Positions 9,805 through 28,751 of a stretch of 64,000 nucleotides of DNA are shown here, one piece after another. Every line of letters starts with the position of its first letter. The stretch's first letter is position 1. Source of the stretch: an uncultured Thermococci archaeon (GTDB taxonomy: Archaea; Methanobacteriota_B; Thermococci; Thermococcales; Thermococcaceae); NCBI GenBank assembly GCA_964487115.1, contig CAZAPD010000090.1, positions 7,994-71,993 of the forward strand, in the 5' to 3' direction. The notes beneath the pieces are model-generated. The model saw nothing but the letters and a program-made list of their open reading frames with translations, did no database searches and was not told the origin of the DNA. A program made the position numbers and the translations under genes.

Positions 9805-9875
9805 AAAGAGCAACGACTGCTATGGTGATATTCTTAATACTCTTTTCACTGTTTTCATATCCTCTCCTCGCAGCC
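9801..9875 (+). other. Signal peptide of the giant protein
   Basis: MKRATTAMVIFLILFSLFSYPLLAA: basic n-region, hydrophobic core, A-x-A-like end. Confidence 0.7.
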
Positions 9876-12800: not shown

Positions 12801-15800
12801 TTTGTTGTCTCTAATTATTCTATCCAGGAGAGCCTGCTAAATGGTAGCGCCTATCTCTATAAGACTTATAGTTTGCCAGTTAATGTGACAAATAATGGGG
12901 CAAACTTTAGTTCTTACGTATATGTTCAGCTTTTAGATAACGGTAAATACTCTTCAAGCAGGAGTGTTGGACCGCTGAATCATGGAGAAACAAAAGAAGC
13001 GTTCCTATACTATATCCCTGCTCCCGGCCAGCATCTAATTACGCTCCTCGTAGACCCAGGCAACAACTGGATAGAATCCAACGAAACGAACAACAACAGA
13101 ATTGTAGCGAATTTATCGTTTGGATATCCAGAGTTAGTTCCTCTTGGAGTTACATGGACACCCTATAACTTTACATCCGGAGACAGTGTAACTTTTAAAA
13201 CATATATCAAAAACACCGGGCAAGCGTTCTATAGAAGCTTTTCAGTGCGCTTTGAGGTGTGGAATGAGACTTCAAGACTGACATATGGATATGGCACTCC
13301 TAATCCGTACAGTTGGTACTTCAAGGAAAATGAAACGAAAGAATTTGACTGGAGATGGTATAATGCAAAACCCGGCAATTTAACTCTTAAAATATTCGTG
13401 GATTACTATAATGCTATACCAGAATCGAATGAGAGCAACAACGAATATGAAGCTTATCTTGGGTCAATAGGAACCCCAGATTTTGAATTGAGCAATTTGA
13501 CTGTTGAAAATCTGGAGTATGGCAGGTATGCCAGAATAAATGTTAATCTAAGGAATCTTGGAGAGGCTATCTATAAAAACTTCCCAATAATGTTTAACAT
13601 AAGCAACACCATACGATATGTGTGGATTTATGGCATGAATTCCAATGAATCAAAACTAATAGGCACAAAATGGTATGTTGATAAAGTCGGCAACATTACT
13701 ATTCAAGTAAGAGCTGATCCAAATAACGCCATAATCGAATCTGATGAAGATAACAATGAAGTTTCAGGCAGTTATTATATTGAGGCACCAGATTTGGTCA
13801 TATCCTCCTACAAGTGGATTGAAGATGACCTGAGCAGAGGATATCTGACCTTCAATATTAATGTTACGAATAATGGAGGAAACTGTTACAGAGGATTCTA
13901 CGTTGGAATGTATATCGATGGTGAGCACAAAGCGGATGCATGGATACCCTCACTCATGAAAGGGGAAACCAAAGAAGTTACAGTAAAATGGCACTTTAAT
14001 GTAGGCGGCACTCACAATGTAACTCTAAGAGCGGATACATACGACACCATAGAAGAGAGCGATGAAAATAACAATGAAGTCAATACACAGGTTACAATTG
14101 CGCTCCCTGACCTCACAATTGAGAGCATAAGTCTGCCCGAAAATATGAATGCAAATGCATATTACCCAATTAACATCACGATTAGAAATGATGGGCTTAG
14201 GGATGTTGATGAATACTTTACTGTAGCGGTATTCGATGGGGATAGATTAATAGGAAGCAAAGGGTATAACACACTTAAAGCCGGCCAAAGCACAGCAATA
14301 CAACTTCAGATAAGACCGTATCCCGGAAACAGGACTATCAAAGCTATAGTTGATTATTACAACCACGTCTATGAAGTGAATGAGAGCAATAATGAAGCAG
14401 AGGCAAAAACCTACGTCAGTGCTCCAAATCTCAAAATTTTGTCTGTCTATGTCGGAAATTACACTTTTGCAGGCGATGAGGCAGTATTAACGGCGACCCT
14501 TGAAAACACGGGAGATGCAGAAGCAAAGAACTTCTACATTGGATTTAAGGCTGGGGATGTATATATAGGGGCTGCTCGTGTGGAAAGCTTAGCTCCAAAC
14601 AGCATCAAAAACGTTTCAATAACCTGGAAAATACAGGGGGGAGAGTATCCAATATACGCAATTGCAGACTATGGAAACTATCTGCGTGAATGGAATGAAA
14701 GTGACAACACAGCCAGCACTCCTGTTAAGGTTCCCACTCCAGATTTAACTGTAAGCAATTTAACATGGAGAGGGGAAAAACAGGTAGGGGCATTTATCAA
14801 CTTTTCGGCTGTAATTTCAAACATAGGAAACCCCACGAAGCAAGAATTCTATGTTTCACTGTATGTAGGAAACGAAGCTGTAGACCATGTGAAAGTCAAC
14901 GGACTTGAGGCTGGAGCAAGCATGGAGATAGATTTCCATCCATGGAAGGCAAAATATGGAAACCTAACAGTGGAAGTTAAAGTTGATACTTGGAACTTCG
15001 TTACAGAATCTAATGAGAACAACAATGTGGTTTTAAGCACCATAAACATTAAGGATATCTCAGCTCCTACAATAATGCAGATGTTTCCGGCAAATGGTAG
15101 TATAACGAACAGGAATATAACCGGAGTTTATCTTGTAGATGACGGAGCCGGAGTGGACTACTCTCTGAGCAAAATAGATATTATCAAAAATGGCACTCAA
15201 ATACCTGGGCATAGTGAATTTAGTGGAGGCTGGCTGGTCTTTATACCTGATTCGAAGCTTGGAGATGGTGAATATACAGTAAGAATAAAAGCAGTTGATA
15301 AAGCAGGCAATTCGGCAAACTATACTTACACATACACTCTTGACACAACACCACCAAGAATAAAAATCGAAGGAGTTTCAAATGGAGCAACATATAACTC
15401 CACCATATTCCCCCAAGTAACAGTGATGGACATCCATTTGAAAGAGTATAGCACACTCCTTAATGGGAAACCCTATAACGGTGAGCCTATAAAATTCGAT
15501 GGAAGCTACGTCCTCGAAGTTACCGCCTCTGACGAAGCTGGAAACAGTGCTCATGAAAAGATAACGTTTACCCTCAATGGGATACCTCTACCACCCTCAT
15601 CCCTCACTGTCAAATCTGAAGAAGGCTATGCTATCTTAACATGGAAACCAAGCCCAAGTAAAGATGTTTTGGGGTATTTTGTATATGTTAACGGAGTTAA
15701 GGTAACCCCTGAACCAATAGAAAGGTTAAACTTTACCCTTCCATATCAGGAGGCTGTTTATGAAGTCTCAGCAGTTGATTTTGCAGGACATGAGAGTGAG

Positions 15801-18800
15801 AAGGTACTGGCAGAACCAATAATTGTTTCACTGGTCTCTCCTCAGAATCCCCTACTGGCAGAGAACTATCCCGCAAATCTCACATTCCACCTGAAAAATA
15901 TGAACGGAGCAATAAATGTAAGTGTAGATATACAGCTTATAGACAGCCTTGGAAATGTAATTAAAGATATAGACTATGGTCGTCTCCAATTTGCTCCAAA
16001 TGAGACCAAACAACTTGTCTTAACGTTTATAACCCCTGAGGACCTAAGGGCAGTGCAGGTTATAGTTTCAAACGGTGGTAAAAGCTATACAACATTCCCA
16101 GTAAAGACCTATCGGACATCTCTCCCAAACATAACCATCTCAAGCATACTTTCGAACTTCCCAGAAGTTATACCGGTAAATATAACAAACTTTGGTTCGG
16201 CTGAATTAACCGTCAGCGGTAGTGCTTCACTTGGAAGGATAACAGGTGAAACCAATTACATAAGGCTAAAACCCGGTGAAAATGGGACGTTATATATATA
16301 CCTAACACCCAAGGATATTGGAGAAGAAATACTCACACTCAATCTGACTTACAGAACCTTTGGAGATGCTAAAACATTCAAGATAACAAAAACAATAAAC
16401 GTCACCAGCCCAATTTTGAATCCAATAACCCTAAGTCATGAACAGATTGTCAAAGGCAAAATCGCTACAGTGTTTGCAATATTCAAAAATTTGGGCTCCG
16501 CTCCACTCACAGTAAACAAGGCTATTATCAGATTAGTAGATGGCAACTCGACAATAGTAGAGAAAACAGTGTATAAAACAGCAAGGTTATACAGTGAAGG
16601 TACTATCTCTTTCTACACAACTTTTGTAGTTCCAGCCAATGCTCCAGATTATGCGACATTAGAGGTTACAGTCTATGGTATGGATGGTTACAAATTAAAC
16701 TACTCAAAACGTGAAGAGGTGCAACTCCTTAAGCCTCCTTACAATGCTAACGTCACTATTGGCAAGGAGATTTACAGTCCCGGCGAAACCATACACGTAA
16801 CCGGCTATGCATTTAATGAAAGTGGATTCCTGCCAAATGTAACAGTAAAGCTCAGCTTTGCAAGAGATGATTTTGTCAGAACATTCCTTGTAAAAACGGA
16901 CTCATATGGAAGGTTTACATTTAACTTTACTCCGTATGCAACAGAAGGGGGAACATTTGTTATTAGCGCCACCCATCCAAAAGTTATTTCCCTTGAGCAT
17001 GACGCTCAGTTCAAGGTATTAGGTATCGTTCCATTGGTTAGACATTATACTCTGCAGGTACCAATAAAATTCAGATATAAACTCCAGATTCCACTGAGAA
17101 ACGTAGGTGACGAACCTCTGAATATTACGGTAACTTCAAATTCTTCAATATTCCATGTCGATATTCTTAAAAATATTACACTAATGCCCGGAGAAATAAA
17201 GAGAATCAGCGTCGTTATTTCATCAAATCAATCCAAGAACGAGACATTTAGTTTAACATTCAGAAGCAGGTATAACAATGAAAGTGTTCAGATAAACATC
17301 ATAACACTTCCAGAAAAACCTATCCTAAGAGCTTCACCGAAGGTAATTGATGTAGGAGTAAAGCCCGGAGAAGTCCTCACAAAAAGTGTGGAAGTGGAGA
17401 ATCTTGGATTTGCCCCAGCAGGGAATGTAACGATAATTCTTCCCAATTGGAGCTTTGTCACTCTTGCAAGCAACTTTACAACAATTGAAGCTGGAGAAAA
17501 AGAGGCTTTCACTATCTTTATAGCTCCAACGGAAAATAATACCGGTAAATTCACCGGATATGTGAAACTCTCAGCAAAAGACGCTGAGGTCAAGATACCC
17601 ATCAGAGTCATAGTTACCCCTAACCAGACAGGAAATGTGAGATTTATCTTGGTGGATCCTGAAGGAAACCCAATACCCAACGGTAAAATCACAATATCAA
17701 ACGAATATTATACAGAAACCAAAGTTGCAGATAAAAATGGAACAGTTTTATTCAGCAACGTTCCGGTAGGCCTTTACAAGTACTATGCGTTTGGAGAAGA
17801 AATCGTTCCAAAGGATGGCAATATTATAATAGATGCCGGAATTGAGAAGAATGTAACAGTGATTTTACTTAAATCTCCGTTAAAAGTGGAGTTTGAAGTA
17901 TATCCAGTAACAGTAGATGATGTCTATACCATAGTACATGAGATAGAATATGAGACGTACCTTACGATACCCTACCTCAAAGTTGATTATGGACAGGGAT
18001 ACATAATAGTCAACTCCTCATATCTAAAAGAACATGGTGTGGTAGAATTCAGGGGATACGTTACTATACAAAACACCAACCCCTATCTCTCAGTAGTTAA
18101 CGTAACGTTCAGACCAATAATAGTTGACCACTACACCGAAATAGTCTTTGCAGTGGATAGAATAGATGAGATAAAACCTGGGGAAAATGTAACCGTACCG
18201 TATGTCATAAGGGTGTATCAACACAGATCACCAGATATTGATCCATGTAAGCCTCAGAGGATAGTTATCAGCCTCCCATCATTGGCTTACTGTGAGGATG
18301 GCAAATGGCATGTGCCCCCTGCAGATGAAATTTCCTTTACAATAAAACTCGCATGTGTGGACTGTTTCTGGTCTATAACAGCTGTTATAAAAGATGTTGC
18401 AGTCGCTCTCAGTGGCCCATTAGGAGACGTTATCCAAGGAGGAGTCAAAATTGGGAAAGCAGGAATAATGATAGTGCGCACTTCCAAAGTTGTAGGAGAC
18501 GTTGCGGATAAAATCCTCAACATTCAGGGGCAGATAGATTTCGGAGCAAAGTGTTATGCAGCCGCCACAAGCGGTTGTCAGGAGGATGCAAGTAGCTGTA
18601 TTCAGAAAGTTGTTGATACTATAATCGGATTTATCCCAGTGGTGAATGATATTTGGGGTATCTACAACGATATAAAAGGTGCTATTGAAAACTGTGGAAA
18701 CTGTTTATTCAAAGATAGCTGTGTCAAAAAATGTACTCCAATACAGGTCCCTCCAATAAATTCAATTCCAATATACATTGGAATAAGCGGCGGCGGGGAT

Positions 18801-21800
18801 GTTGGAGGCATTGGCGGAGGAGGCGGAGATGGTATCAGTTATGAAGTCCAAGAATGTGAAAAAACAGAGGGTATAGCTCCAACACCCCAGAGTTCATCCA
18901 CCCGTATCAGTAAAGGAAGTATCCCAGATGTTAATGGAAAGAGCTGTGCATTTTTAAGAAATGTACCCGGAGAAGAGATATTACCAGCACAAACTGTTAA
19001 TCCCAATGAAGATCATAAAAACATGGTCTGCACTCGGATAAAACTTGAAATAAGACAGAGATTGACAATGGAGAGACAGGGTTTCAGAGCAGATTTGAAA
19101 TTCACCAACCTAGCAGGATACACAATAAGAAATCTAACGGTATACATTAAGTTCTTCGACGAAAACGGCACAGTTGCAGATGATAAATTCTTTGTCAGAG
19201 TGCTAACATTAGAGGGAATAAATTCCTTAAATGGTTCGTCTTTAGTTCCCAATGGAACAGGAATAGTCAATTGGCTGATAATACCAAAACCAGGAGCAGC
19301 TGGAGCATTGAGCACGCACTACACAGTCAAAGCATACATATTTGGAAAAGTCGGTAACACCACCTTGGAATACGAGAGCTGGCCTGAAGAGATAACTGTT
19401 GAACCTATGCCTATCCTACAGTTGGATTACATGCTCCCGAGATACGTGTATGGTGACAATCCAAAAACGCCAGAGGTAGAACCCCCAATACCCTTTGTCT
19501 TTGGAGTCAGAGTGAAGAACATAGGATACGGAGATGCCAAAAATCTGAGAATAGAGTCTGCTCAACCAAAGATAATAAGCAGTAACGTCCCAGCATATAT
19601 ATCATTCCGCATAATTGGAACATATATTAACGGAATTAAAGCGGCCAACAGTCTAACAGTTGACTTTGGAGATATACCTGCAGGGGAGAGCGCAACCGCA
19701 GCATGGATAATGACCGCTCAAGTAAGTGGGGAATTCGTGAGCTACAACGCTACATTTATCCATGAGGACCTATTGGGTGGAAACGAAACATCTCTAATAA
19801 GAACCCTAAGAACTCACACCCTATTCAAAGCTTTCAATGACACCATAAGAAATGATGGGATGATGGACTTTTTGGTTGATGATAATAGAGATCTGATTCC
19901 CGAGAGGATAATAGACTCCACTGGAGCAGATTTCGAGGTACTCCATGTAAATGCCACGATGAGAACAGAGTCAGACATGAAGATAATCGTACCAACAGCC
20001 ATATTTATAGACAAATGGACATACATAGGACTCAAATTCAATCCCGGGACTACGTTCAGGATTGTGCGCTCAGATGGCAGTATGCCCGTTTCATACTGGT
20101 ATGATGGTAAAACACTCCATATTTTAGATTATGGGACTCCAGAATTTTACTATATTAAGAGCAATAGAAAACCAGTGGCTCAAGCGACAATAACCTCACC
20201 GACAATTGCCAATAGGAGCGTAACTTTCGACGCTTCCTTAAGTTATGATCCGGATGGAAAAATAACGGATTATGCATGGAAAATAGGTAATCTAACCTTC
20301 CATCGGAAAGTATTGAACTACACCTTCACCAAACCGGGAATTTATAATGTCACACTTACCGTTAGAGATGATGGTGGTCTCTCAGCAACTAAATCCTTTA
20401 TTGTTACAGTTTATCTCGGGCCAAGATTTACTGAGAACTTCAGTGTGTCACCAAAATTGGGAGTTGTACCATTCAACATAACCGCAGTGTTAAATGTAAC
20501 AAATAGTGGGGATGCTGAAGGCATATACTCAGCAGCATTTTCAGTTGATGGAAAGCTCTTAAACATTTCCCAGGTAAGCATACAGCCAGATACAACGTAT
20601 TCCTTCGAATTCCGTGCGAAAATTTCAGAAATCGGTTATCACAATGTGACCATTAATAACTTCACTCAAGTCGTGGAAGCATACAAGAACGTTAGTATAT
20701 CTCAAATTAACAGGCAGAATTATTCAAAATACTTTGGATATTACAATTCGCTTCAATGGGATGAATTTAAGAAAGATTTTGAAAACTGGAGTGCCAACAT
20801 TCTTTCAAATATCACACTGCCTGTGGAGGAATTTGACAGGGTCATCTACATGAAAACAGGAAACTGGAGTATTGCAGAATATATTGAGAATCTTAACAAG
20901 ACTGAAGAGTCAGGATGGATTAAAGCTGTTTATACAAGAAATGTTACTTTAATTGGAATTACCAAGTGGAATTATACAGAGCTCCACCTAACACAAGTTG
21001 CAGAACTCTATGGAAACGCCACACACAAACTTGATGTAACAGCTCCTTCACTAACGGTGAGTCCAAGTAGCGGAATCTATCAATATATCCCAGAATTCAA
21101 TGTCACAGTCTGCGATGAAAGTAATGTCACCGTATGGGGCATTAGTATTACCAAAGGGACAAAAACGGCATTCACTTTGATTTCCATCAACAACACATGT
21201 TCCCTATGGAGAGGAATCTTACCACTGGATATTGCCAATAATACGGTAACAATAATAGCCGAAGACGAATTTGGAAACAGGGCTAATGAGACCCTGTGGA
21301 TATACATTAATCCAACAACACCAATAATCTACATTGAAAGTCCCAAATCCACAGTTTACAACAAAAAAACGCTTTGGTTCAATTATACAGTTATAGATAC
21401 CGATTTAATTGGTGTGAGAGCCTATTTAGATGGAACTCTAACAAGTACCTCAGTCAATGTCTCCAAACAACTAACAATGGACTACGGATACCATAACTTT
21501 ACAGTTACTGCATGGGATGTCTCATATAATGTTAGTAGAACCGTAATCTTCAGGATAAACAAACCCCCTATAGCCAACTTCACATGGACAGCAAACCATC
21601 TGAGGGTTAATTTCACGAGCACAAGTACAGATGAAGACGGCATAATACGTTATCTATGGGATTTCGGTGATGGTTCAAGTTCAAATGAAACAAACCCAAC
21701 CCATGTATATCCAAGGGGCGGCAGGTATAATGTAACACTAACAGTATGGGATGCCTACAGTGCCACTTCCACGATAACCAGAGCTATCCAAGTATTTGCA

Positions 21801-23198
21801 AATGTTAGCGAGAACAAAGAAGAAAAACACTTATTCACAAAATACTTTGGATTTTACAACACATCTTCATGGGAACCATTTAGAGAAGATTTTGGGCAGT
21901 GGAGCAGCGATATACTTAAAAACATGACTATACCAGAAGAGGAGCTCGATAGTATTTACTCCACAATTATTTCAAATTGGAGTCTCACATCCTACAGGGA
22001 AAACCTGATTATAGGAGCTTCTACAGGCTGGATAAACGCTACTTACAGAAGAGAGGTAATCATTAAAGGCTTCAGGGGATATGAAAATATTACACTGTCA
22101 ATAATTCAAACAGTTCATCTGTTCGGCAACGCAACACATGTTCCCGATACAGAGCCTCCCGAGATATCCATAACCTATCCAGAAAATAAGACTTACGACC
22201 ACAATATCACGTTAATTAAAGTTCAGGTCTATGATGTTTCTCCAGTTAAATGGGTCAGAGCGGAGCTGGATGGGAGAATATACCCAATGAATCACGTAAA
22301 TGATTCATGGTTGGCAACCGTTAATATCGGAGATGGAAAACACCTTCTCACAGTGTATGCCTCGGATGTATACGGGAATACTGGATATACCAACATTACA
22401 TTCACAGTCAATACCAGCATCAGAATAGTGGAAAGCAACAATACTACAGTTCAAGTGATTCCCGGTGAAGCTGAGAGTCAAATCCAAATCGGTGGCAGCT
22501 CAGTGACTATTAATATTAGCATTCAAGGTGTTGAATATTCATTTATATTCCATGCCCAGCCCTTGATTACAGTAGATGAGAGGATTAACAGCAAACCATG
22601 GATGATGATTTACAGTAACGCACAAATGGGAGAAACAGAAGAAAAAACTGAGGAGATCACCCAAGGAGGGACGGTTTATAGAGTGAGAAGAATTACAATT
22701 GAACTTCAAGTGGCGGAAGATGGATACGCTGTTTTAGTAGTACCGCTCCATCAGATGAAGCCAACGGAGATTAAGATAGATAAGGATGGCGTCGAGTACA
22801 AATTAACAAGAGAAAAGAGGGAATATGGTTACTTTGGAGTATTTGGGGACTATTTATACATAGTGGTTTTTGATGATCCAGTTATTAAAATAACAATGGA
22901 AGAGATAGACAGAACACGCACAATAGAATTACATAAAAGAATATGGACCAATCTCGGCATCATATGGGAAGCATATTATCTCAGAATGAATGAAAGATTC
23001 AACGAACTGGAAGCCAACATAACAAATATAAGCAGAATCCAGAAAGCTTTGAGCCTCCATAAGAAAGCACAAAGCTACTTTGATAAAGCAAATACCTACG
23101 ATCCAAGGATTAATCCAGCGATGTATGCAATATACATGAGAAAAGCATATATCACAGAAAAAAGGGCCCTGAAGCTACTTATTGAAAATCTCCATTAA
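9801..23198 (+). CDS. Giant secreted multi-domain surface protein (4465 aa): CARDB-like x13, Ig/FN3-like, CarboxypepD_reg-like, Cys-rich module, PKD x2
   Basis: Uninterrupted 13,398-nt ORF. AAGGAGG lies 10 nt upstream of the ATG. N-terminal signal peptide, domain motifs as listed in the sub-features, and very frequent N-x-S/T sequons. T6 terminator-like run just downstream. Confidence 0.9.
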   Translation: MKRATTAMVIFLILFSLFSYPLLAANMTKSLNSSKKEAPTLRLDEANNPDVAVTSLSYSYVNGSQMIVSASVVNYGNTSEPFNTTFIAIEPQELPEPSEVPFTWIDISQIVQNAVQVYSGEYVSNWSAVLHGDDSYFIYKLPFVLNYFGRKIVNISVSTNGYIELLGKWEQPRFRSSIGIYPDLEDYHEDVILALDGDLETDDGYLAVVGFADKVVIEWFGSTFQDYNSADYPINVQVIIFRNGTIRWSYKFLRYSSEEYNMFAGYFSKVSLEDRVISQGERKSFEVQLPEVTPLTIKSQTPGLLNEEETTTTIMLPIRDFYVEAIADNEEELNDYYRFNNIGELWIWPGDYWIENATIGNLTVGEYVEINFTVKSTSHHPETTMIKLLMNNESVRTLYVNSLDFINGTARKSFSWRVQGGKYSLMLELQNQGDINTENNLFLLGNYSLPQPNFKVLNYSISIPNCVGDLAVITANVTNDGDANWSDVEVKFVVGYSSSGQLPISRISYISLPAGDTKEVSASFSLQPGNISWIYVQIDPYDRVIERNENDNILNETYMAEIYYPDFTVESIYTPTKPNTGNSYTINITIDNLGQCYNGGIYTYLYENGSRVGYKYVTGILTNPKNISIGWTPREPGLRNLTVVIDPYNSIPEKNEANNALSKMVFVGGPDLIITNVTLLSFDGMAGSTATFNVTIKNTGEAFTDPFYVVAKSSLGSDYEYIRGMNKNEEKWIILQPIINGGSYNLTFIVDYTHNIPETYESNNMALYPINVPRPNFIIERVEIPDNTVGNVPINITIKNIGAPYNATRTNVIVKIQASGYSSLYFGGIIGSNESVWKTGEVDINPPGGTINVTVNPSKFINETHFSDNSYVLDHTTGYPDLTVKISVPNDVSAGERIPVNVTVKNIGNATLRISKYSYWYYYLPLSVKIVYENGETYTSRYELAPATLDPNTSIMRISYFTLNGGLNILNATVDENNRWKESNESNNYATVSLNVAMPDFVVSNYSIQESLLNGSAYLYKTYSLPVNVTNNGANFSSYVYVQLLDNGKYSSSRSVGPLNHGETKEAFLYYIPAPGQHLITLLVDPGNNWIESNETNNNRIVANLSFGYPELVPLGVTWTPYNFTSGDSVTFKTYIKNTGQAFYRSFSVRFEVWNETSRLTYGYGTPNPYSWYFKENETKEFDWRWYNAKPGNLTLKIFVDYYNAIPESNESNNEYEAYLGSIGTPDFELSNLTVENLEYGRYARINVNLRNLGEAIYKNFPIMFNISNTIRYVWIYGMNSNESKLIGTKWYVDKVGNITIQVRADPNNAIIESDEDNNEVSGSYYIEAPDLVISSYKWIEDDLSRGYLTFNINVTNNGGNCYRGFYVGMYIDGEHKADAWIPSLMKGETKEVTVKWHFNVGGTHNVTLRADTYDTIEESDENNNEVNTQVTIALPDLTIESISLPENMNANAYYPINITIRNDGLRDVDEYFTVAVFDGDRLIGSKGYNTLKAGQSTAIQLQIRPYPGNRTIKAIVDYYNHVYEVNESNNEAEAKTYVSAPNLKILSVYVGNYTFAGDEAVLTATLENTGDAEAKNFYIGFKAGDVYIGAARVESLAPNSIKNVSITWKIQGGEYPIYAIADYGNYLREWNESDNTASTPVKVPTPDLTVSNLTWRGEKQVGAFINFSAVISNIGNPTKQEFYVSLYVGNEAVDHVKVNGLEAGASMEIDFHPWKAKYGNLTVEVKVDTWNFVTESNENNNVVLSTINIKDISAPTIMQMFPANGSITNRNITGVYLVDDGAGVDYSLSKIDIIKNGTQIPGHSEFSGGWLVFIPDSKLGDGEYTVRIKAVDKAGNSANYTYTYTLDTTPPRIKIEGVSNGATYNSTIFPQVTVMDIHLKEYSTLLNGKPYNGEPIKFDGSYVLEVTASDEAGNSAHEKITFTLNGIPLPPSSLTVKSEEGYAILTWKPSPSKDVLGYFVYVNGVKVTPEPIERLNFTLPYQEAVYEVSAVDFAGHESEKVLAEPIIVSLVSPQNPLLAENYPANLTFHLKNMNGAINVSVDIQLIDSLGNVIKDIDYGRLQFAPNETKQLVLTFITPEDLRAVQVIVSNGGKSYTTFPVKTYRTSLPNITISSILSNFPEVIPVNITNFGSAELTVSGSASLGRITGETNYIRLKPGENGTLYIYLTPKDIGEEILTLNLTYRTFGDAKTFKITKTINVTSPILNPITLSHEQIVKGKIATVFAIFKNLGSAPLTVNKAIIRLVDGNSTIVEKTVYKTARLYSEGTISFYTTFVVPANAPDYATLEVTVYGMDGYKLNYSKREEVQLLKPPYNANVTIGKEIYSPGETIHVTGYAFNESGFLPNVTVKLSFARDDFVRTFLVKTDSYGRFTFNFTPYATEGGTFVISATHPKVISLEHDAQFKVLGIVPLVRHYTLQVPIKFRYKLQIPLRNVGDEPLNITVTSNSSIFHVDILKNITLMPGEIKRISVVISSNQSKNETFSLTFRSRYNNESVQINIITLPEKPILRASPKVIDVGVKPGEVLTKSVEVENLGFAPAGNVTIILPNWSFVTLASNFTTIEAGEKEAFTIFIAPTENNTGKFTGYVKLSAKDAEVKIPIRVIVTPNQTGNVRFILVDPEGNPIPNGKITISNEYYTETKVADKNGTVLFSNVPVGLYKYYAFGEEIVPKDGNIIIDAGIEKNVTVILLKSPLKVEFEVYPVTVDDVYTIVHEIEYETYLTIPYLKVDYGQGYIIVNSSYLKEHGVVEFRGYVTIQNTNPYLSVVNVTFRPIIVDHYTEIVFAVDRIDEIKPGENVTVPYVIRVYQHRSPDIDPCKPQRIVISLPSLAYCEDGKWHVPPADEISFTIKLACVDCFWSITAVIKDVAVALSGPLGDVIQGGVKIGKAGIMIVRTSKVVGDVADKILNIQGQIDFGAKCYAAATSGCQEDASSCIQKVVDTIIGFIPVVNDIWGIYNDIKGAIENCGNCLFKDSCVKKCTPIQVPPINSIPIYIGISGGGDVGGIGGGGGDGISYEVQECEKTEGIAPTPQSSSTRISKGSIPDVNGKSCAFLRNVPGEEILPAQTVNPNEDHKNMVCTRIKLEIRQRLTMERQGFRADLKFTNLAGYTIRNLTVYIKFFDENGTVADDKFFVRVLTLEGINSLNGSSLVPNGTGIVNWLIIPKPGAAGALSTHYTVKAYIFGKVGNTTLEYESWPEEITVEPMPILQLDYMLPRYVYGDNPKTPEVEPPIPFVFGVRVKNIGYGDAKNLRIESAQPKIISSNVPAYISFRIIGTYINGIKAANSLTVDFGDIPAGESATAAWIMTAQVSGEFVSYNATFIHEDLLGGNETSLIRTLRTHTLFKAFNDTIRNDGMMDFLVDDNRDLIPERIIDSTGADFEVLHVNATMRTESDMKIIVPTAIFIDKWTYIGLKFNPGTTFRIVRSDGSMPVSYWYDGKTLHILDYGTPEFYYIKSNRKPVAQATITSPTIANRSVTFDASLSYDPDGKITDYAWKIGNLTFHRKVLNYTFTKPGIYNVTLTVRDDGGLSATKSFIVTVYLGPRFTENFSVSPKLGVVPFNITAVLNVTNSGDAEGIYSAAFSVDGKLLNISQVSIQPDTTYSFEFRAKISEIGYHNVTINNFTQVVEAYKNVSISQINRQNYSKYFGYYNSLQWDEFKKDFENWSANILSNITLPVEEFDRVIYMKTGNWSIAEYIENLNKTEESGWIKAVYTRNVTLIGITKWNYTELHLTQVAELYGNATHKLDVTAPSLTVSPSSGIYQYIPEFNVTVCDESNVTVWGISITKGTKTAFTLISINNTCSLWRGILPLDIANNTVTIIAEDEFGNRANETLWIYINPTTPIIYIESPKSTVYNKKTLWFNYTVIDTDLIGVRAYLDGTLTSTSVNVSKQLTMDYGYHNFTVTAWDVSYNVSRTVIFRINKPPIANFTWTANHLRVNFTSTSTDEDGIIRYLWDFGDGSSSNETNPTHVYPRGGRYNVTLTVWDAYSATSTITRAIQVFANVSENKEEKHLFTKYFGFYNTSSWEPFREDFGQWSSDILKNMTIPEEELDSIYSTIISNWSLTSYRENLIIGASTGWINATYRREVIIKGFRGYENITLSIIQTVHLFGNATHVPDTEPPEISITYPENKTYDHNITLIKVQVYDVSPVKWVRAELDGRIYPMNHVNDSWLATVNIGDGKHLLTVYASDVYGNTGYTNITFTVNTSIRIVESNNTTVQVIPGEAESQIQIGGSSVTINISIQGVEYSFIFHAQPLITVDERINSKPWMMIYSNAQMGETEEKTEEITQGGTVYRVRRITIELQVAEDGYAVLVVPLHQMKPTEIKIDKDGVEYKLTREKREYGYFGVFGDYLYIVVFDDPVIKITMEEIDRTRTIELHKRIWTNLGIIWEAYYLRMNERFNELEANITNISRIQKALSLHKKAQSYFDKANTYDPRINPAMYAIYMRKAYITEKRALKLLIENLH
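10848..15056 (+). repeat. Array of 13 tandem, diverged CARDB-like domain units (period about 312-357 nt)
   Basis: Each unit opens with P[DN][FL]xhxxh (PDFTVESIY, PDLIITNVT, PDLTVKISV...). Each contains N.G (NDGDA, NTGEA, NIGNA...) and ends in an acidic/Asn cap. The caps are NTENN (about 11110), ERNENDN (11447), EKNEANN (11770), TYESNN (12082), ETHFSDNS (12395), ESNESNN (12752), ESNETNN (13082), ESNESNN (13433), ESDEDNN (13746), ESDENNN (14063), VNESNN (14382), WNESDN (14700) and ESNENNN (15015). Confidence 0.8.
15057..15830 (+). other. Ig-like domains followed by an FN3-like domain
   Basis: DISAPTI...YTVRIKAVDKAGNS...DTTPPRIKIEGV...LEVTASDEAGNS, then PPSSLTVKSEEGYAILTWKPSPSKDVLGYFVYVNG (FN3-like). 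Confidence 0.5.
17631..17872 (+). other. Carboxypeptidase-regulatory-like (CarboxypepD_reg) beta-sandwich domain
   Basis: GNVRFILVDPEGNPIPNGKITISNEYYTETKVADKNGTVLFSNVPVGLYKYYAF. Confidence 0.6.
18240..19030 (+). other. Cys-rich module with embedded Gly-rich linker (18784-18840)
   Basis: 14 Cys within about 265 aa (CKPQ, AYCED, ACVDC, AKCY, SGCQ, SSCI, ENCGNC, DSCVKKC, QECE, KSCA, VCTR) in a protein otherwise almost Cys-free. Includes GISGGGDVGGIGGGGGDGIS. Confidence 0.7.
20170..20415 (+). other. PKD domain 1
   Basis: VTFDASLSYDPDGKITDYAWKIGN...YNVTLTVRDDGGLSAT. Confidence 0.8.
21558..21797 (+). other. PKD domain 2
   Basis: VNFTSTSTDEDGIIRYLWDFGDGSSSNETNPTHVYPRGGRYNVTLTVWDAYSAT. Confidence 0.85.
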
Positions 23199-23206
23199 CT
23201 TTTAAA

Positions 23207-23212
23207 TTTTTT
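23207..23212 (+). terminator. Oligo-T (T6) archaeal-type terminator candidate after the giant ORF
   Basis: TTTAAATTTTTTAC lies 9 nt after the stop codon. Confidence 0.4.
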
Positions 23213-23310
23213 ACAGATTTTAATTTATGTTATGTTGCATCCTATCCTCCATGATTTCTGCACCATCATATCTTGGGATGTTCTAAATTCGCTAAATATA
23301 ATACGATGGA

Positions 23311-23324
23311 TATAAAAATATAAA
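23311..23324 (+). promoter_or_regulatory. TATA-box candidate for the STAND gene pair
   Basis: TATAAAAATATAAA lies 28-41 nt upstream of the preferred ATG at 23352, with an AGAGGG SD in between. Confidence 0.35.
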
Positions 23325-23351
23325 GTGCATAATTACATAGAGGGTTCATGT

Positions 23352-25613
23352 ATGAGTATGAAAGCCTCATTATTAATGAGATCATTATCCAACGAAACTA
23401 ATCTGCATATACTCTCCATACTTAAATCCGGCGCGTTTAATCCCAGAGAACTTGCCCGCATTCTGCAAAAAGATGAAACGGATATTTCAAGAAGACTAAG
23501 ACTGCTGGAAAAGGCAGGATTAGTGAAAGGTCAGTGGATGCGAATAGGAAAAAAGAATGTAAAAGTGTATTCGCTGAAGGTAGATGAAGTCAAAATAAGC
23601 TTCAAGCCAACAGAAGTGATAATAAGAACGACTACAAATGAAAACTACCAGATACCTATATTTGACAGGAAAGTTCCTGAGGTTAATATGTTCTTTGGAC
23701 GGCAAGCTGAAATAGAAAAAATAACATCAACTCCAGCTCGTGTCATACTCATCTATGGAATAGCAGGTATTGGAAAGACAACTCTAATAGCAAAAATATT
23801 CAATAATGCTTTTTGGTACCAGATAAATGAGCTCGATAGCTTTGACTATATCATATGGCAGTTTGGTTTATACCTCAACACCCTCGGATATTCTCTACTC
23901 CTTGATTATCTACGCAGCGGAGGGAAAAATGAGAGGGATATATTCGAACTCATACTCGATGGAATGGAAACAACGGGAGCTCAGGTAGTTATTGATGATG
24001 CCCATAAATGCTCTGACGATAAGATAATACAGCTCTTTACGTATCTGACACCAAGGCTTCAAAAAGCAAAGCTTGTAATAATATCAAGGGAAAGGATAAA
24101 TTTAGGTTTGAAAAATGTGATGTATTTACATCTCAAAGGTTTAAGTGCAGAGGATGCCTATCAGCTTTTGATATCCAAAGGAGCAAGAATAGAACCGGAA
24201 AAATTTGCAGAGATCTACCACATAAGTTATGGACACCCTCTAATATTGCTCCTATTTGCTGAAACATATCCTGATGAAGAGGTCAAGATGCACAACTTCC
24301 TTGATTTCTTGTTTACTGAAATCTACCAAAAGCTGAAAGAGGATGAAAAGTTAATGATTCAAATACTCTCTCTTTTTGATGAACCTTTAGAATACGAGGA
24401 GATAAGGGCCTTATATCAAAAAAAGAATGTTTTTACAGTTCTATACTCCCTTACAAACAAGGGAATAGTGGAAAAAAGGGGAGAGGCTTATGCGCTCCAT
24501 GATCTACTGAGAGGACTTGCAAAAGAACTTACAGACATCGATGAGCGAGAATACTACTTAAAATACATTAATCATCTGCTGACAAAGAAAACAGCCAAAG
24601 CTTTTATGAAAGCTCTCCAGTATGCCGTCAAACTTGGGGACGAGGAGAAGATTAGGGAACTAATCGAAATCAGGCTAAGAAGATTCAAACGGATAATTCA
24701 AGATTTTCCAGATTCGTATATGCGAATTTTAATTCAAATCAAGGATAATCCTTATGCCAAAGAGGAGCTCGGTAATATATACTTCCAGAAAGGTCTATTC
24801 AATAAAGCCCTTACTCTCTGGCTTGAAATTAAGGACAAAGTCGAAGGTATTCACAAAGGCGATGTTCTAAGCTCTTTGGTTGATATATACATAGAATTAA
24901 ACGAATTTGAAAAAGCTGAGGAATATCTCAGGGAACTGGAAAAACTTTTAGCCAAAACGCCAGATTTAAAAATTCAACTTTGGTATTATATCCAACTTAC
25001 AAAATTTGAATATTACAAAAATAACCATGAAAATGCTCTCAAAAGCGCATTTAAAGAGCTTGAAATAGTAAGGAAAATGAGCCCATATCCAGAGCTTGAA
25101 AGTCTCGTATTACTTCACATCGGGGATATATATACAGGCATGGAAAAGGTTAAAGATGGAATCAAATATTACATCCAATCCCTCAAACTGGCTAAGGCAT
25201 ATAATCTGGCATTCTTAGAGCATGTCTCATATATGGAGCTAACAAAAGCATATTTCATCCTTAAAGATTATAGAAGAGCTATAGAATATGGAACAAAAGC
25301 AGTTCAATACTTCATCAGGGTCAGAAACTATCGTAGGGCTATCGACGCATTGGCATATAGATGCCTCTCATACGCTGGATTACTAAAGCTCAAAGAAGCC
25401 GAAAAGGATGCCGAAGAAATGATAAAGATAGCCCAAACAACAAACTATCCATTAGCATGGGCAGGATACATATTCTTAGGAGTAATTAAAGAGTTAAGGG
25501 GAGAGAATGGGCAGGAATATTTCAAACTGGGTGAAGAGAGACTGAAAGAATATCCTTGGTTGTATGAGTCAGTTATGGAAGAGGTTAACAGGGTGGAATT
25601 AAAGGAGGAGTAG
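23352..25613 (+). CDS. Winged-HTH + STAND (NB-ARC/archaeal-ATPase-like) P-loop NTPase + TPR-repeat protein, paralog 1
   Basis: ORF track 23325-25613. The ATG at 23352 is preferred because it gives the same 13-aa lead before NETNL as paralog 2. ArsR-like wHTH (NLHILSILKSGAFNPRELARILQKDETDISRRLRLLEKAGLV). FFGRQAEIEKI then Walker A GIAGIGKTT. Walker B VVIDDAH. NB-ARC-type GxP motif YGHPLILLL. C-terminal about 300 aa are TPR-like helical repeats. Confidence 0.8.
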   Translation: MSMKASLLMRSLSNETNLHILSILKSGAFNPRELARILQKDETDISRRLRLLEKAGLVKGQWMRIGKKNVKVYSLKVDEVKISFKPTEVIIRTTTNENYQIPIFDRKVPEVNMFFGRQAEIEKITSTPARVILIYGIAGIGKTTLIAKIFNNAFWYQINELDSFDYIIWQFGLYLNTLGYSLLLDYLRSGGKNERDIFELILDGMETTGAQVVIDDAHKCSDDKIIQLFTYLTPRLQKAKLVIISRERINLGLKNVMYLHLKGLSAEDAYQLLISKGARIEPEKFAEIYHISYGHPLILLLFAETYPDEEVKMHNFLDFLFTEIYQKLKEDEKLMIQILSLFDEPLEYEEIRALYQKKNVFTVLYSLTNKGIVEKRGEAYALHDLLRGLAKELTDIDEREYYLKYINHLLTKKTAKAFMKALQYAVKLGDEEKIRELIEIRLRRFKRIIQDFPDSYMRILIQIKDNPYAKEELGNIYFQKGLFNKALTLWLEIKDKVEGIHKGDVLSSLVDIYIELNEFEKAEEYLRELEKLLAKTPDLKIQLWYYIQLTKFEYYKNNHENALKSAFKELEIVRKMSPYPELESLVLLHIGDIYTGMEKVKDGIKYYIQSLKLAKAYNLAFLEHVSYMELTKAYFILKDYRRAIEYGTKAVQYFIRVRNYRRAIDALAYRCLSYAGLLKLKEAEKDAEEMIKIAQTTNYPLAWAGYIFLGVIKELRGENGQEYFKLGEERLKEYPWLYESVMEEVNRVELKEE

Positions 25614-27904
25614 TGGTGACGCAGGACATTTCATTTTTAAGGAGCATTCTCAATGAGACTAATCTTCAGATACTAACCCTTCTGAGAACCACCTCTCTTA
25701 ACACAAGAGAAATAGCACGACTTCTCCAGAAGGATGAAACTTATATCTCAAGATGCTTAAGGACACTTGAAAGGCTTGGGATTGTCGAAGGCGAATGGAT
25801 GCGAGTTAGAGGAAAAAATGTGAGGATATATTCTTTAAAACTTGAAGAACTCAAAATAAGCTTTGGTTTGGAGGGTTTAAAAGTTATTATCGGAAAGAGA
25901 CACCTACAATACTCCCCTCCCCTCTTCTCGAACAGAGCTCCAGAGGTCAAAGTTTTTGTTGGACGGAAAAAAGAACTGGAATTCCTATCCAGCAGTTATC
26001 CCGTGGTTATTGTATATGGGATGGCGGGTATTGGCAAATCCACATTAGTTGCCAAGGCATATAGAGATGCATTTTGGTATCGAATAAATGGAGATGAGAG
26101 CATTGAATATGTAATCTGGCAGTTGGCTCTATATCTAAACCTCCTTGGATATTCTGATGTTATCGAATATCTCAGAGGGGGTGGGAAGGAATTAGCTGTT
26201 ATAAAGGAGCTAACCGCAGAAGGTATCAACAGAACGAAAGGTATTATAGTTTTTGATGACCTTCATAGATGTGATGATGAGGATATCATGTCATTCATAA
26301 GATTTTTAGCCTCAAATATTGAAAATGGAAAATTAATCCTTATCTCACGAGAAAAACCTCAGATAGGATACAACGAAAAGATGCTGGTAATACATCTAAA
26401 GGGATTAGAGAGTAGAGATGCCTATGAACTTTTGAAACTCAAACTGCCAAATCTCACACTTGATGAATTCACGAAAATTTATCATGCCACTTTCGGCCAC
26501 CCTCTGGCACTTTTGTTGGCATCAGAAATGCCCGATTTTCACGGAGGGAACTTTTTTGAATATCTCTTTAGAGAGGTTTATGAAACACTAAAAGAAGATG
26601 AGAAATTAATGCTACAGATACTTTCTCTCTTTGATGAACCTGTTGAATATGAAATCTTAAAAAAACTCTCTGGTCATAATACGTTTTTGACCCTTTACTC
26701 TCTTCTGAATAAAGGACTTGTTGAAAGAGTGGGAGATAGTTATCATGTCCATGACCTCCTTAGAGCCCTCCTCAATGAGGTAAGAGACATCGAAGAAAAA
26801 AAGTATTATAGCAAATATATCTCGTATCTGCTCAAAAAGAACAACGCCAAAGATTTTCTAACGGCATTTAAATATGCAATACGCCTTGAAGATGAGGAAC
26901 TTATTAAGAAGTTAACTGAGGTGAGAATCCGGGAATATTGGAGGATTGCCCTCGATTTTCCCACCGCATATTTAAAGCTTCTCGATAGAATCAAACATAT
27001 TCCTTATGCCAAAAAAGAAATCGCAAGGATATACTTTAACAAAGGATTCTTTGAAAAAGCCCTACAGCTGTGGCTTGAAGCCAGTGATAAGGTTGAAGAG
27101 GATTTTCATAAATTTGATGTTATTATGATGCTTATAGATGTCTTCTGTGAGCTTGGTAAAATTGACGAGGCTGAGAAATATATGACAGAGCTTGAGGAAA
27201 TATACTTAAGAAATGCAGAAGACCCCTATATCAGATTGGGCTATTATATTGAGCTAACAAAAATAGCCACATTTAAAAGAGAACGCGAGAGAGCCTTGGA
27301 AAACGCATTTAAAGAGCTTGAGGCAGTTCGAAATTACCCAAAGGTGTATCCTGAGCTGGAGGCACTTGTACTTTATCACATTGGATATCTCTATGTTGAA
27401 CTCGGTGAATTAGAAAAAGCTTCAAAATATTACGGGGAGGGTTTAAAGGTTTCTAAGGCATATTCCCTGCCTTTTATGGAAAATCTTGGATACATCCAGC
27501 TCGGAATAATTAACTACACACTGGGAGATTACGAAACCGCAGTCTTCCATTCAGAAAAAGCTGCAAAATACTTTTTACATACTAAGAACTACAGGCGAGC
27601 AATCGATGCACTTTTTAGAATAACACTTTCGCTTATGGGTTTAAAACAGTTTAAAGAAGCTGAAGAGAAGGCAAAGGAAATTTTGGAGCTTGCTCAAACA
27701 ACTAATTATCCCCTCGGATGGTGCGCTTATGTGCTTTTGGGCATTGCAAAGGAACTGCAGGGAAAAGAGGGAAAAACAGAGATAGAACAGGGATTAGAAA
27801 AAATTAAAGACAACACGTATCTGCATAAGGGGCTCTTTGAAGAGCTTTCTTTAGTTCTTGATGAAAACAGCCTTAAGAGATTGTTCTCTACTGCCAGATT
27901 CTGA
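25613..27904 (+). CDS. Winged-HTH + STAND P-loop NTPase + TPR-repeat protein, paralog 2
   Basis: 763 aa, collinear with paralog 1; roughly half the residues are identical by eye over the N-terminal 300 aa. Walker A GMAGIGKST, Walker B IIVFDDLH, FGHPLALLL. GTG start overlaps the TAG of paralog 1 by 1 nt. The 3' end overlaps the convergent fumarase alpha gene by 17 nt. Confidence 0.8.
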   Translation: MVTQDISFLRSILNETNLQILTLLRTTSLNTREIARLLQKDETYISRCLRTLERLGIVEGEWMRVRGKNVRIYSLKLEELKISFGLEGLKVIIGKRHLQYSPPLFSNRAPEVKVFVGRKKELEFLSSSYPVVIVYGMAGIGKSTLVAKAYRDAFWYRINGDESIEYVIWQLALYLNLLGYSDVIEYLRGGGKELAVIKELTAEGINRTKGIIVFDDLHRCDDEDIMSFIRFLASNIENGKLILISREKPQIGYNEKMLVIHLKGLESRDAYELLKLKLPNLTLDEFTKIYHATFGHPLALLLASEMPDFHGGNFFEYLFREVYETLKEDEKLMLQILSLFDEPVEYEILKKLSGHNTFLTLYSLLNKGLVERVGDSYHVHDLLRALLNEVRDIEEKKYYSKYISYLLKKNNAKDFLTAFKYAIRLEDEELIKKLTEVRIREYWRIALDFPTAYLKLLDRIKHIPYAKKEIARIYFNKGFFEKALQLWLEASDKVEEDFHKFDVIMMLIDVFCELGKIDEAEKYMTELEEIYLRNAEDPYIRLGYYIELTKIATFKRERERALENAFKELEAVRNYPKVYPELEALVLYHIGYLYVELGELEKASKYYGEGLKVSKAYSLPFMENLGYIQLGIINYTLGDYETAVFHSEKAAKYFLHTKNYRRAIDALFRITLSLMGLKQFKEAEEKAKEILELAQTTNYPLGWCAYVLLGIAKELQGKEGKTEIEQGLEKIKDNTYLHKGLFEELSLVLDENSLKRLFSTARF

Positions 27905-28751
27905 TCTTTCCATCCGCCCTTACCTCCAGAAAAGCCCTCCTGTGAGCCCAGCATTGAACAACCAGCCCAGCTGGGAACGATGCCGGATGTCTGTGGGCGT
28001 ATTCGATCTTAACATCAAGTGCAGTTGTCACCCCACCCATTCCCATTGCACCAATTCCGAGGGAGTTGACCTCCTCAAGGAGTTCCTCCTCAAACCGAGC
28101 AATTTTTCTGTTTTCATGTCTAATCCCAAGAGGCCTTAAAAGAGCCTTTTTGGCGAGAATTAAAGCTATATCCGCACCACCACCAATGCCAATGCCGAGA
28201 ATTACCGGCGGACAGGGTTTCCCACCACATTCCCTAACCTTCTCCACGACAAATTTCCTAATACCCATAAGGCCATCTGAAGGACTGAGCATTGCCATAG
28301 CCGAACAGTTTTCACTCCCACCACCTTTAGGTAGGACTGCAATTCTGAGTGTATCATCATCAACAAGCTCCCAGTGGATTACTGGAACAAAACGACCTGT
28401 ATTATCACCTGAATTTTTATTTGAGAGCAAATCAACTGCATTTGGTCTTAGGGGAACTTCTTCCGTTGCCCTCCTTGTGGCTTCAATCAGGGCTTTTTTC
28501 AGAGATCCAATGTAGGGATTTTTTATTCCTGCCTCGACAAAGAACGTTATCGTCCCGGTGTCCTGACAGATCGGGATTCCCTCTTCCCTCCCTATTTCAA
28601 TGGTTTTCAGGATATTGTAGAGATTAAAACGAGCTATTGGATTTTTCTCCTCAGAATATGCTCTCCGAATCGCTCCTACAACATCCTCCGGTAGCTTTGT
28701 GACTGCTAAGCGGATGGCATTGATTATCGATTCTGTGATTTCTTCAGACAA
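27888..28751 (-). CDS. Class I (Fe-S) fumarate hydratase / tartrate dehydratase alpha subunit
   Basis: 287 aa. PICQDTGTITFFVEAG, VLPKGGGSEN and GIGIGG motifs of the FumA N-terminal/TtdA family. Apparent TTG start. Confidence 0.9.
   Translation of the reverse strand: MSEEITESIINAIRLAVTKLPEDVVGAIRRAYSEEKNPIARFNLYNILKTIEIGREEGIPICQDTGTITFFVEAGIKNPYIGSLKKALIEATRRATEEVPLRPNAVDLLSNKNSGDNTGRFVPVIHWELVDDDTLRIAVLPKGGGSENCSAMAMLSPSDGLMGIRKFVVEKVRECGGKPCPPVILGIGIGGGADIALILAKKALLRPLGIRHENRKIARFEEELLEEVNSLGIGAMGMGGVTTALDVKIEYAHRHPASFPAGLVVQCWAHRRAFLEVRADGKIRIWQ

Follow-up and report, generated by a model that had tools for sequence, protein, structure and literature searches.

The DNA analyzed in this study is a 64,000-nucleotide stretch from an uncultured archaeon of the Thermococcaceae (contig CAZAPD010000090.1, positions 7,994 to 71,993; hereafter the window, whose own numbering is used throughout). 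It contains two adjacent genes on the forward strand, here named A and B, both of which encode large multidomain proteins. The profile, motif and structural matches described below leave little room for doubt that both proteins are archaeal STAND transcription factors of the family of PH0952 from Pyrococcus horikoshii, composed of a winged helix-turn-helix (wHTH), a switch made of a nucleotide-binding domain (NBD), a helical domain (HD) and a winged-helix domain (WHD), an arm and a tetratricopeptide repeat (TPR) sensor. The PH0952 family is already known and has a solved structure, and A and B are additional members, A as an ortholog and B as a paralog of a separate clade. On balance, we favor the combined reading that A and B are ligand-gated, oligomerizing activators that act on an adjacent module of surface-protein genes through a conserved palindrome. 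Taken by itself, the proposal that this module is their target and the palindrome their operator is an even call from conserved synteny.

Architecture and family membership of the two proteins

The preliminary description of this region, made from the sequence alone, had proposed tandem paralogs at 23352–27904, and two open reading frames (ORFs) on the same strand were indeed found there. The genes and the domains of their products are as follows.

23352–25613, forward strand: gene A, 753 amino acid residues from ATG 23352, STAND transcription factor of the PH0952 clade
23355–23657, forward strand: gene A wHTH, mapped from PH0952
23658–24143, forward strand: gene A NBD, Walker A at 23757–23780 and Walker B at 23985–23999
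24144–24305, forward strand: gene A HD, GHPL at 24231–24242
24306–24539, forward strand: gene A WHD, histidine at 24498–24500
24540–24848, forward strand: gene A arm, mapped from PH0952
24849–25607, forward strand: gene A TPR sensor, mapped from PH0952
25613–27904, forward strand: gene B, 763 residues, or 762 from GTG 25616, B-clade paralog
25616–25921, forward strand: gene B wHTH
25922–26407, forward strand: gene B NBD, Walker A at 26018–26041 and Walker B at 26246–26260
26408–26560, forward strand: gene B HD, GHPL at 26495–26506
26561–26791, forward strand: gene B WHD, histidine at 26750–26752
26792–27103, forward strand: gene B arm
27104–27868, forward strand: gene B TPR sensor

In the Pfam search, NB-ARC scored 27.5 bits for A and 28.8 bits for B against a gathering threshold of 23.5, the ArsR-type HTH_5 scored 23.9 and 27.3 bits against a threshold of 22, and TPR_12 was above its gathering threshold for both proteins. 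Matches to NACHT, nSTAND6 and TPR_MalT were below threshold for both. AAA_16 was below threshold for A and scored 32.6 bits for B at a cut-off of 32.6. In a search of solved structures, residues 105–753 of B matched PDB 6MFV, the structure of PH0952, with an E-value of 6.6e-161, which bears out the archaeal origin proposed earlier. The identities to PH0952 over 743 aligned columns were 49% for A and 43% for B.

The Walker A motif was GIAGIGKT in A and GMAGIGKS in B, the Walker B motif was VVIDD in A and IVFDD in B, and both motifs were kept in all homologs. The GHPL of the GxP motif and the histidine motif (L/V)HDLL of the WHD (LHDLL in A and VHDLL in B) were invariant in the alignment and map to residue 296 and His382 of PH0952, respectively, and the F/VGR leader corresponds to the L0 loop of PH0952. 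The elements that contact ADP in PH0952, which are the L0 loop (residues 114–118), the P-loop, the GxP motif and His382 of the WHD, were conserved in A, B and their orthologs. All of the motifs quoted in the preliminary description (Walker A, Walker B, GxP and the F.GR..E leader) were recovered. Switching between ADP and ATP and inducer-dependent oligomerization are predicted for A and B from their sequences.

An AlphaFold2 (AF2) model of B, built with 26 homologs, had a mean predicted local distance difference test (pLDDT) score of 86, and the order of secondary-structure elements in its NBD-HD-WHD part was as expected. Residues 2–74 formed four helices and a beta-hairpin, with block pLDDT of 52–86 (74–86 over residues 11–74). 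A Foldseek search with this model found 6MFV first (E 5e-36), MalT (8BOB) second and, more weakly, EfAvs5 (9JAP) and the Roq1 NLR resistosome. Despite the E-value of 5e-36, the global TM-score of the model on 6MFV was 0.45–0.52 and the root-mean-square deviation was 32 Å. The domain arrangement of the model is unlike that of the closed 6MFV crystal form, which may reflect an open state or a modeling error. The assignment of an ArsR-like wHTH, an NB-ARC-like STAND NTPase and TPRs that had been made by eye is one on which Pfam, the 6MFV match and Foldseek agree, and the placement in the STAND class withstood the check by profiles and structures, with NB-ARC above threshold and 6MFV, MalT, Avs5 and Roq1 among the structural matches.

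For the wHTH, phmmer gave weak matches to HlyU and NmtR. An identity as ArsR/SmtB metalloregulators was considered and rejected: the NCBIfam model HTH_metalloreg scored 34.7 bits for A and 26.2 bits for B, below its cut-off of 55. Because only the ArsR fold is common to them and to these regulators and the model is below cut-off, A and B were not classed as metal sensors.

PH0952 was crystallized without the effector in an ADP-bound closed form and was referred to as a "putative" regulator (Lisa et al., 2019, Nucleic Acids Res 47:3795, PMC6468293; PDB 6MFV). Phylogenetic analysis in the same study placed the PH0952 clade as sister to APAF1, and the interdomain contacts between the nucleotide-binding oligomerization domain (NOD) and the arm were reported to be very similar to those of APAF1 (PMC6468293). 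Among STAND proteins that sense through TPRs, PH0952 is the structural archetype, and the autoinhibition of MalT was explained with its help. Similar to A and B, PH0952 is about 750 residues long and has an ArsR-like wHTH, an NBD-HD-WHD switch, an arm and a TPR sensor. In addition, a PH0952-like gene is preceded by PKD-rich proteins homologous to the giant protein encoded next to A and B. Different from the tandem pair of the window, PH0952 is a single copy in its own locus, and B falls into a clade of its own, in which the recognition helix is altered and the sensor has clade-specific residues.

Similar to MalT of Escherichia coli (8BOB, with MalY), A and B combine a STAND NOD with a TPR-like sensor, and the MalT and TPR_MalT profiles matched them weakly. 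A and B probably also resemble MalT in an oligomerization that depends on inducer and ATP, and in activating a weak promoter from repeated sites that precede it. However, the DNA-binding domain is N-terminal and an ArsR-type wHTH in A and B, whereas that of MalT is a C-terminal LuxR-type HTH, and no LuxR/GerE match was found in the Pfam search of A and B. Orthology to MalT was rejected, as the NCBIfam MalT equivalog model scored 24.1 bits for A and 29.1 bits for B against a cut-off of 537. By analogy, A and B may work like MalT, but they are not members of the MalT family. APAF1 and the other NB-ARC (AP-ATPase) proteins resemble A and B in the NB-ARC match above threshold and in the conserved GxP motif and WHD histidine. 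Different from APAF1, A and B have a TPR sensor instead of WD40 repeats and a wHTH effector instead of a CARD, and their output is presumably transcription.

The tandem gene pair and its evolution

BLASTP aligned A and B over 747 residues with 48% identity, 70% positives, 12 gaps and an E-value of 0, in agreement with the earlier estimate that the two were about half identical. No third copy was found within the window. The ATG of gene A is preceded 7 nt upstream by GAGGG, a Shine-Dalgarno-like element; the earliest start given for this gene by the ORF lister was a GTG at 23325. The region of the stop of A and the start of B reads GGAGGAG-TAG-TG-GTG and offers two starts for B, the GTG at 25613, which has one base in common with the TAG of A, and the GTG at 25616, which lies 2 nt past the TAG and is better spaced from GGAGG. 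The second start came to attention because the 762-residue form is on record, public gene calls using GTG 25616, and an exact look-up of the 763-residue form gave no match. The two genes abut with either start. Thus, of the claim that their reading frames are coupled through a TAGTG overlap, the abutting genes were confirmed, but the overlap is only one of two readings.

About 30 related loci, labeled L002 and so on, were compared with the window. Cultured species, P. horikoshii and T. paralvinellae among them, were absent from the contig scan and were recovered via protein look-ups. Tandem A-B pairs occurred in four species-level lineages, represented by the window, L002–L006, L007 and L008. 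The distances at the A/B junction in these lineages were −1/+2 (window), −11, +5 and −8 nt, and a Shine-Dalgarno-like element was present inside the end of A in each of them. Given these abutting junctions and Shine-Dalgarno-like elements, co-transcription and translational coupling of A and B appear to be conserved. Most Thermococcales loci had a single A-type gene, and A-only loci included those of T. paralvinellae, AM4, Pyrococcus sp. ST04, a P. horikoshii-like contig and T. barophilus. The loci of T. indicus and T. camini were B-only. B orthologs were kept in at least six lineages, and in the two loci just named the B-type gene was the only copy seen.

In a neighbor-joining (NJ) tree, A grouped with PH0952 and all single-copy A-type genes, and the B copies formed a separate clade with the genes of T. 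indicus and T. camini. Relative to the outgroup P0028, the B clade was inside the Thermococcales group, where it was sister to the whole A clade. B is best regarded as a putative duplicate of A that arose within, or before, a Thermococcus subclade.

Both genes are under strong purifying selection. Compared with an 81%-identical relative (the L002 ortholog), the ratio of nonsynonymous to synonymous substitution rates (dN/dS) was 0.076 for A and 0.063 for B, similar to those of the flanking fumarase and dehydrogenase genes. Neither copy is decaying, as these ratios and the intact motifs show, and the suggestion that the duplication is old and that both copies are maintained was upheld by the ratios and by the presence of the pair in four lineages.

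The identities between A and B ranged from 39 to 61% by domain, and the divergence was spread over all domains. The changes fixed between the clades numbered 3 in the wHTH, 7 in the TPR sensor and 3 in the NOD and arm together. The recognition helix DETD(I/V)SRRL was invariant in the A clade, and that of the B clade read DE(T/S)[Y/Q/L]ISR[C/S/G]L. The concentration of fixed changes in the wHTH and the TPR sensor would fit two different inputs better than a heteromer. Moreover, A-type and B-type proteins are each probably self-sufficient, as each type was found alone beside the same module and palindrome.

Two transposon-related genes were observed near B-only loci. In T. indicus, an IS605-type OrfB/TnpB gene (L043 8600–9910) separates the surface-protein cassette from the B-type STAND gene and occupies the place at which one would look for an A-type gene. 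In T. camini, a similar OrfB/TnpB-type gene (L047 4442–5350) lies about 2 kb upstream of the cassette, beyond the fumarase beta gene and outside the module.

The adjacent surface-protein module and its palindrome

The features next to genes A and B, and the cargo cassettes identified in related loci (numbered by locus), are as follows.

9455–9479, no strand: conserved palindrome GGGTTTGACAATTTCTTTCAAACTC (GGGTTTGAC-N7-TTCAAAC), candidate operator or upstream activating site
9634–9804, forward strand: small ORF of 56 residues (MIWEAEPDIVEYINKKTGINIDTIITILNAEEAFFMIQIQKALK...), its TGA stop overlapping the ATG of the giant gene (ATGA)
9801–23198, forward strand: gene for a giant secreted or surface protein of 4465 residues, proposed regulatory target
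23303–23336, forward strand: A-B promoter-like element cgatgGATATAAAAATATAAAGTGCATAATT, a BRE/TATA-like box with conserved downstream ATGCATAAT
8897–9400, reverse strand: fumarase beta gene, left flank of the block
27888–28751, reverse strand: fumarase alpha gene, right flank of the block
L045 7339–9739: cargo cassette
L048 7572–9942: cargo cassette
L043 6113–8486: cargo cassette
L047 7521–9909: cargo cassette
L050 7759–10150: cargo cassette
L051 7655–10213: cargo cassette

The palindrome emerged from the comparison of loci; repeat searches of both intergenic regions gave weak AT-rich matches only. Its consensus across the aligned 5' regions of the module is GGGTTTGA(C/T)-N7/8-(T/G)TCAAACC. 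It was present at the equivalent position in 12 of the 12 loci that hold the 5' end of the module, which include two loci fetched via the small ORF and loci at other chromosomal positions, and it was the only match in the window. Where the STAND gene and the module are arranged divergently (L014, L017 and T. profundus), the palindrome is situated between the two. The palindrome thus appears, from these comparisons, to travel with the module. It is followed after 6–7 nt by TAAGTA, a weak TATA-like box (approximately 9487–9492). In archaea, activator sites are usually found directly ahead of a weak TATA-like box, so that the location of the palindrome fits an activator. The boxes of MalT are similarly placed upstream of weak promoters. 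A palindrome-like match (GGCTTTGG...CAAAC) was also seen at L043 9863–9885 and may be due to chance.

The small ORF of the window looks unannotated. Its homologs in the modules are 47 to 72 residues long, and a member of the family was present in each of the 14 loci that cover the relevant DNA, in each case beside a PH0952-type STAND gene. One such homolog accompanied a STAND gene whose product is only 32% identical to B and whose context is unrelated (L049, E 4e-9). Homologs also precede the divergently oriented giant gene in L014 and L017. The two loci fetched via the small protein, those of T. barophilus and T. profundus, each contained a STAND gene: in T. barophilus, the order is cassette, small ORF, a 1727-residue beta-helix protein and then the STAND gene, and in T. 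profundus, the STAND gene is divergent from the cassette, at yet another chromosomal position. The 56-residue ORF is therefore a likely conserved partner gene of PH0952-family STAND genes, judged by this linkage. No Pfam model matched the small protein family, and when the small ORF by itself was the query of a word-indexed search, nothing but the query was retrieved. A profile of ten homologs retrieved 27 clusters, all of 45 to 72 residues, in which every match with a named source was a Thermococcus hypothetical protein. An exhaustive phmmer search with the small ORF gave 9 representatives, of which two (P0076 and P0079) were long proteins, one of 631 residues with 11 matched stretches and the other of 6093 residues with 8. 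The helical unit of about 45 residues may thus also occur as a repeat inside large proteins.

The giant protein has a signal-like hydrophobic segment at its N-terminus, 11 CARDB matches and PKD and Big domains (Pfam CARDB E 1.7e-154, PKD_4 E 4e-30), as well as a Cys-rich and Gly-rich stretch near residue 3000. Its C-terminal helical tail (…YAIYMRKAYITEKRALKLL) is common to all giant orthologs and to a truncated remnant in L012. The latter is a short ORF at approximately 9140–9860 of that locus, between the small ORF and the STAND gene, which encodes only an Ig-like domain and the conserved helical tail and may be a deletion derivative of the giant gene. The VARTIG module (Makarova et al., 2021, PMC8416519) is likewise a Thermococcales locus built around a large Ig/CARDB surface protein. 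Its identity with the module of the window was rejected, however, because VARTIG involves another protein family (arCOG07710) and another organization, and no STAND, ArsR or TPR component is mentioned in that paper (PMC8416519).

Two types of cargo accompanied the STAND gene and the small ORF. The giant CARDB/PKD gene was found in the window, L002–L010, L014, L015, L017, Pyrococcus sp. ST04 and the P. horikoshii-like contig. The other type is a three-gene cassette encoding proteins of about 535, 205 and 48 residues, the last being homologous to the 56-residue ORF of the window, and was found in T. paralvinellae, T. indicus, T. camini, AM4, L011, L012 and L016. The protein of about 535 residues is secreted, and that of about 205 residues has a signal peptide and a C-terminal transmembrane segment; neither has a homolog in the window or a Pfam family. 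By eye, the 535-residue protein has a Cys...His motif (DKSGTCIDLALW...PGHAFP) resembling a transglutaminase core, and a Gly/Asn-rich linker. In T. barophilus, the position of the giant is occupied by a 1727-residue NosD/beta-helix repeat protein (L050 10204–15387). This replacement indicates that the cargo is exchangeable, while the regulator, small ORF and palindrome stay.

The block at 9634–27904 sits between the genes for the two subunits of a class I fumarase and keeps them 18.5 kb apart; the 3' end of B overlaps the convergent alpha gene by 17 nt. The GC content of the block is 0.37–0.41, compared with 0.42–0.47 in the flanks. The fumarase genes are split in the same way, with other cargo, in T. 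paralvinellae, T. indicus, T. camini and T. barophilus, which suggests that the gap between them is an old insertion hotspot. Outside the fumarase context, the STAND gene of Pyrococcus sp. ST04, the P. horikoshii-like contig, AM4 and T. profundus also kept the module. With the STAND gene staying with the small ORF and surface-protein genes in at least five different chromosomal contexts, the module seems to move together with the STAND gene.

Genes A and B are preceded by a T-rich, terminator-like tract at 23199–23230, after the stop of the giant gene, and then by the element at 23303–23336, a putative promoter as judged from the archaeal promoter consensus. The same motif was found upstream of the A-type gene in L002, L009, L010, L012 and L045. 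Its ATAAARTGCATAATT element did not occur elsewhere in the window beyond chance, and thus gives no evidence for a regulon motif. Rfam gave no match in or near the locus; its only matches in the window, both unrelated, were the C/D-box sRNA sR22 (53380–53439, forward strand, 74 bits) and a tRNA (4762–4836, forward strand).

Proposed mechanism, competing interpretations and implications

According to the combined reading, A and B in their resting state would be autoinhibited monomers with ADP bound. Binding of a ligand to the TPR sensor would relieve the autoinhibition, ADP would be exchanged for ATP and A and B would oligomerize, and the clustered wHTH domains would then bind promoter DNA at the palindrome and activate the operon of the 56-residue ORF and the 4465-residue CARDB/PKD surface protein. 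The A/B pair would bring two different signals to one promoter, and mixed oligomers might form facultatively. Because peptides and proteins are common ligands of TPR sensors, the small protein is a candidate ligand of the sensor, or else a candidate modulator. In a more ambitious form, which we put forward tentatively and with considerable doubt, the STAND regulator, the cytoplasmic partner of about 50 residues, the palindromic operator and the changeable surface-protein cargo would constitute one conserved relocatable module. The small protein, whose ORF is translationally coupled to the surface-protein gene, would be the ligand or an anti-activator of the TPR sensor in a feedback loop, and in the lineages with both A and B the duplicated sensor would be a two-input, possibly hetero-oligomeric hub on the same operator.

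Several observations weigh against activation of the module by A and B through the palindrome. No DNA site, inducer or target gene has been tied by experiment to any member of the PH0952 family, and for PH0952 itself no biological role, inducer, DNA site or target genes were reported in the structural paper or found in the literature search. The words operon, neighbour and target gene are absent from the text of that paper, which was not searched for inducer, operator or partner (PMC6468293), and a literature search on the neighboring P. horikoshii locus tags and on Thermococcus together with NB-ARC gave nothing relevant. For the N-terminal 105 residues of A alone, Foldseek gave no significant match (best E 0.09, with a single-sequence AF2 model of pLDDT 65); the weak matches to Phr (2P4W), BigR (3PQJ) and 1UB9 were not used as evidence. 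Another factor, or the small protein, may be what binds the palindrome, and the A-B promoter region of the window contains no copy of it. Loci whose giant gene runs off the fetched DNA were not assessable for the palindrome. The first gene of the cassette loci starts about 45 nt past TAAGTA, compared with about 140 nt to the small ORF in the window, and the promoter geometry in the window is therefore uncertain; a deletion of cassette genes may have left the extra leader behind. The terms A-only and B-only refer to the fetched loci and one protein search, not to whole-genome scans. Finally, the age of the duplication is uncertain because the position of B in the NJ tree may be a long-branch effect, as B is 6–7 points closer to nearby A-type genes than to those of Pyrococcus.

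The target might instead lie elsewhere, either in the flanking fumarase and central metabolism genes or at a distance, so that the linkage to the module would be positional. Such targets are compatible with the location of the block, which in many Thermococcus genomes is flanked by the fumarase beta and alpha genes, with the overlap of B with the alpha gene and with the lack of a palindrome copy in the A-B promoter region of the window. We nevertheless consider them quite improbable, since the four loci that left the fumarase context kept the small ORF and surface-protein genes, and the palindrome travels with the module.

How the two proteins relate to each other is a separate matter. An obligate or preferential A-B hetero-oligomer, similar to paired plant NLRs or NAIP/NLRC4, in which one protein is the sensor and the other a helper or DNA binder, would be in line with the tight translational coupling kept in four lineages, with the equal length and architecture of A and B and their intact NOD motifs, and with a B recognition helix that lacks an Asp and an Arg present throughout the A clade, so that B might bind DNA less strongly on its own. 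However, A-type genes are alone in most loci and B-type genes are alone in T. indicus and T. camini, with the same module and palindrome, and both copies retain a full sensor and a full effector, with no specialization through domain loss. Such an arrangement is therefore judged unlikely; a heteromer is possible, but not an obligate one. Redundancy or decay of B, or a role as a dominant-negative modulator with no signaling function of its own, is very improbable. The long branch of the B clade and the altered recognition helix could be read in this way, but the ORF is intact and full-length, every catalytic and nucleotide-contact motif is conserved, and the dN/dS of 0.063, the retention in at least six lineages and the occurrence as the sole copy seen in two loci all argue for a maintained function. 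The check for a pseudogene that had been proposed earlier thus found neither copy decaying.

The preliminary description had also compared A and B with antiviral Avs sensors, a comparison for which no support was found. Similar to Avs proteins, A and B combine a STAND NTPase with a repeat sensor, EfAvs5 and a plant resistosome were among the weaker Foldseek matches, and the GC content of the block is below that of its flanks. In an antiviral sensor, the TPRs would recognize a viral protein and trigger an immune output. Yet no PADLOC Avs model matched A or B at E ≤ 1; the PADLOC matches were to the wHTH of Csa3/CasR, to one generic TPR model and, very weakly for A, to IetA (E 0.0065). Different from Avs, the effector is a DNA-binding wHTH and not a toxic domain such as a nuclease, protease, SIR2 or TIR, no known defense genes or defense island are adjacent, and the genes hold a stable chromosomal position among metabolic genes in many species under strong purifying selection. 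An antiviral role is accordingly regarded as extremely improbable.

The activator reading would add several handles to a family so far represented by a structure, namely a candidate operator, a candidate regulon made up of giant CARDB/PKD proteins or other secreted ones, and a conserved partner of about 50 residues. The tandem duplication, the small partner ORF, the giant surface-protein cargo and the palindrome appear not to have been described before, as judged from the literature search. If the reading is true, it would show a hyperthermophilic archaeon switching very large surface proteins via an NLR-like ATP switch, and if the module is also relocatable as proposed, an archaeal STAND transcription factor would for the first time have a target, an operator and a partner assigned to it. 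How duplicated STAND sensors share one promoter is, moreover, a question for which the natural A/B pair would offer a system.

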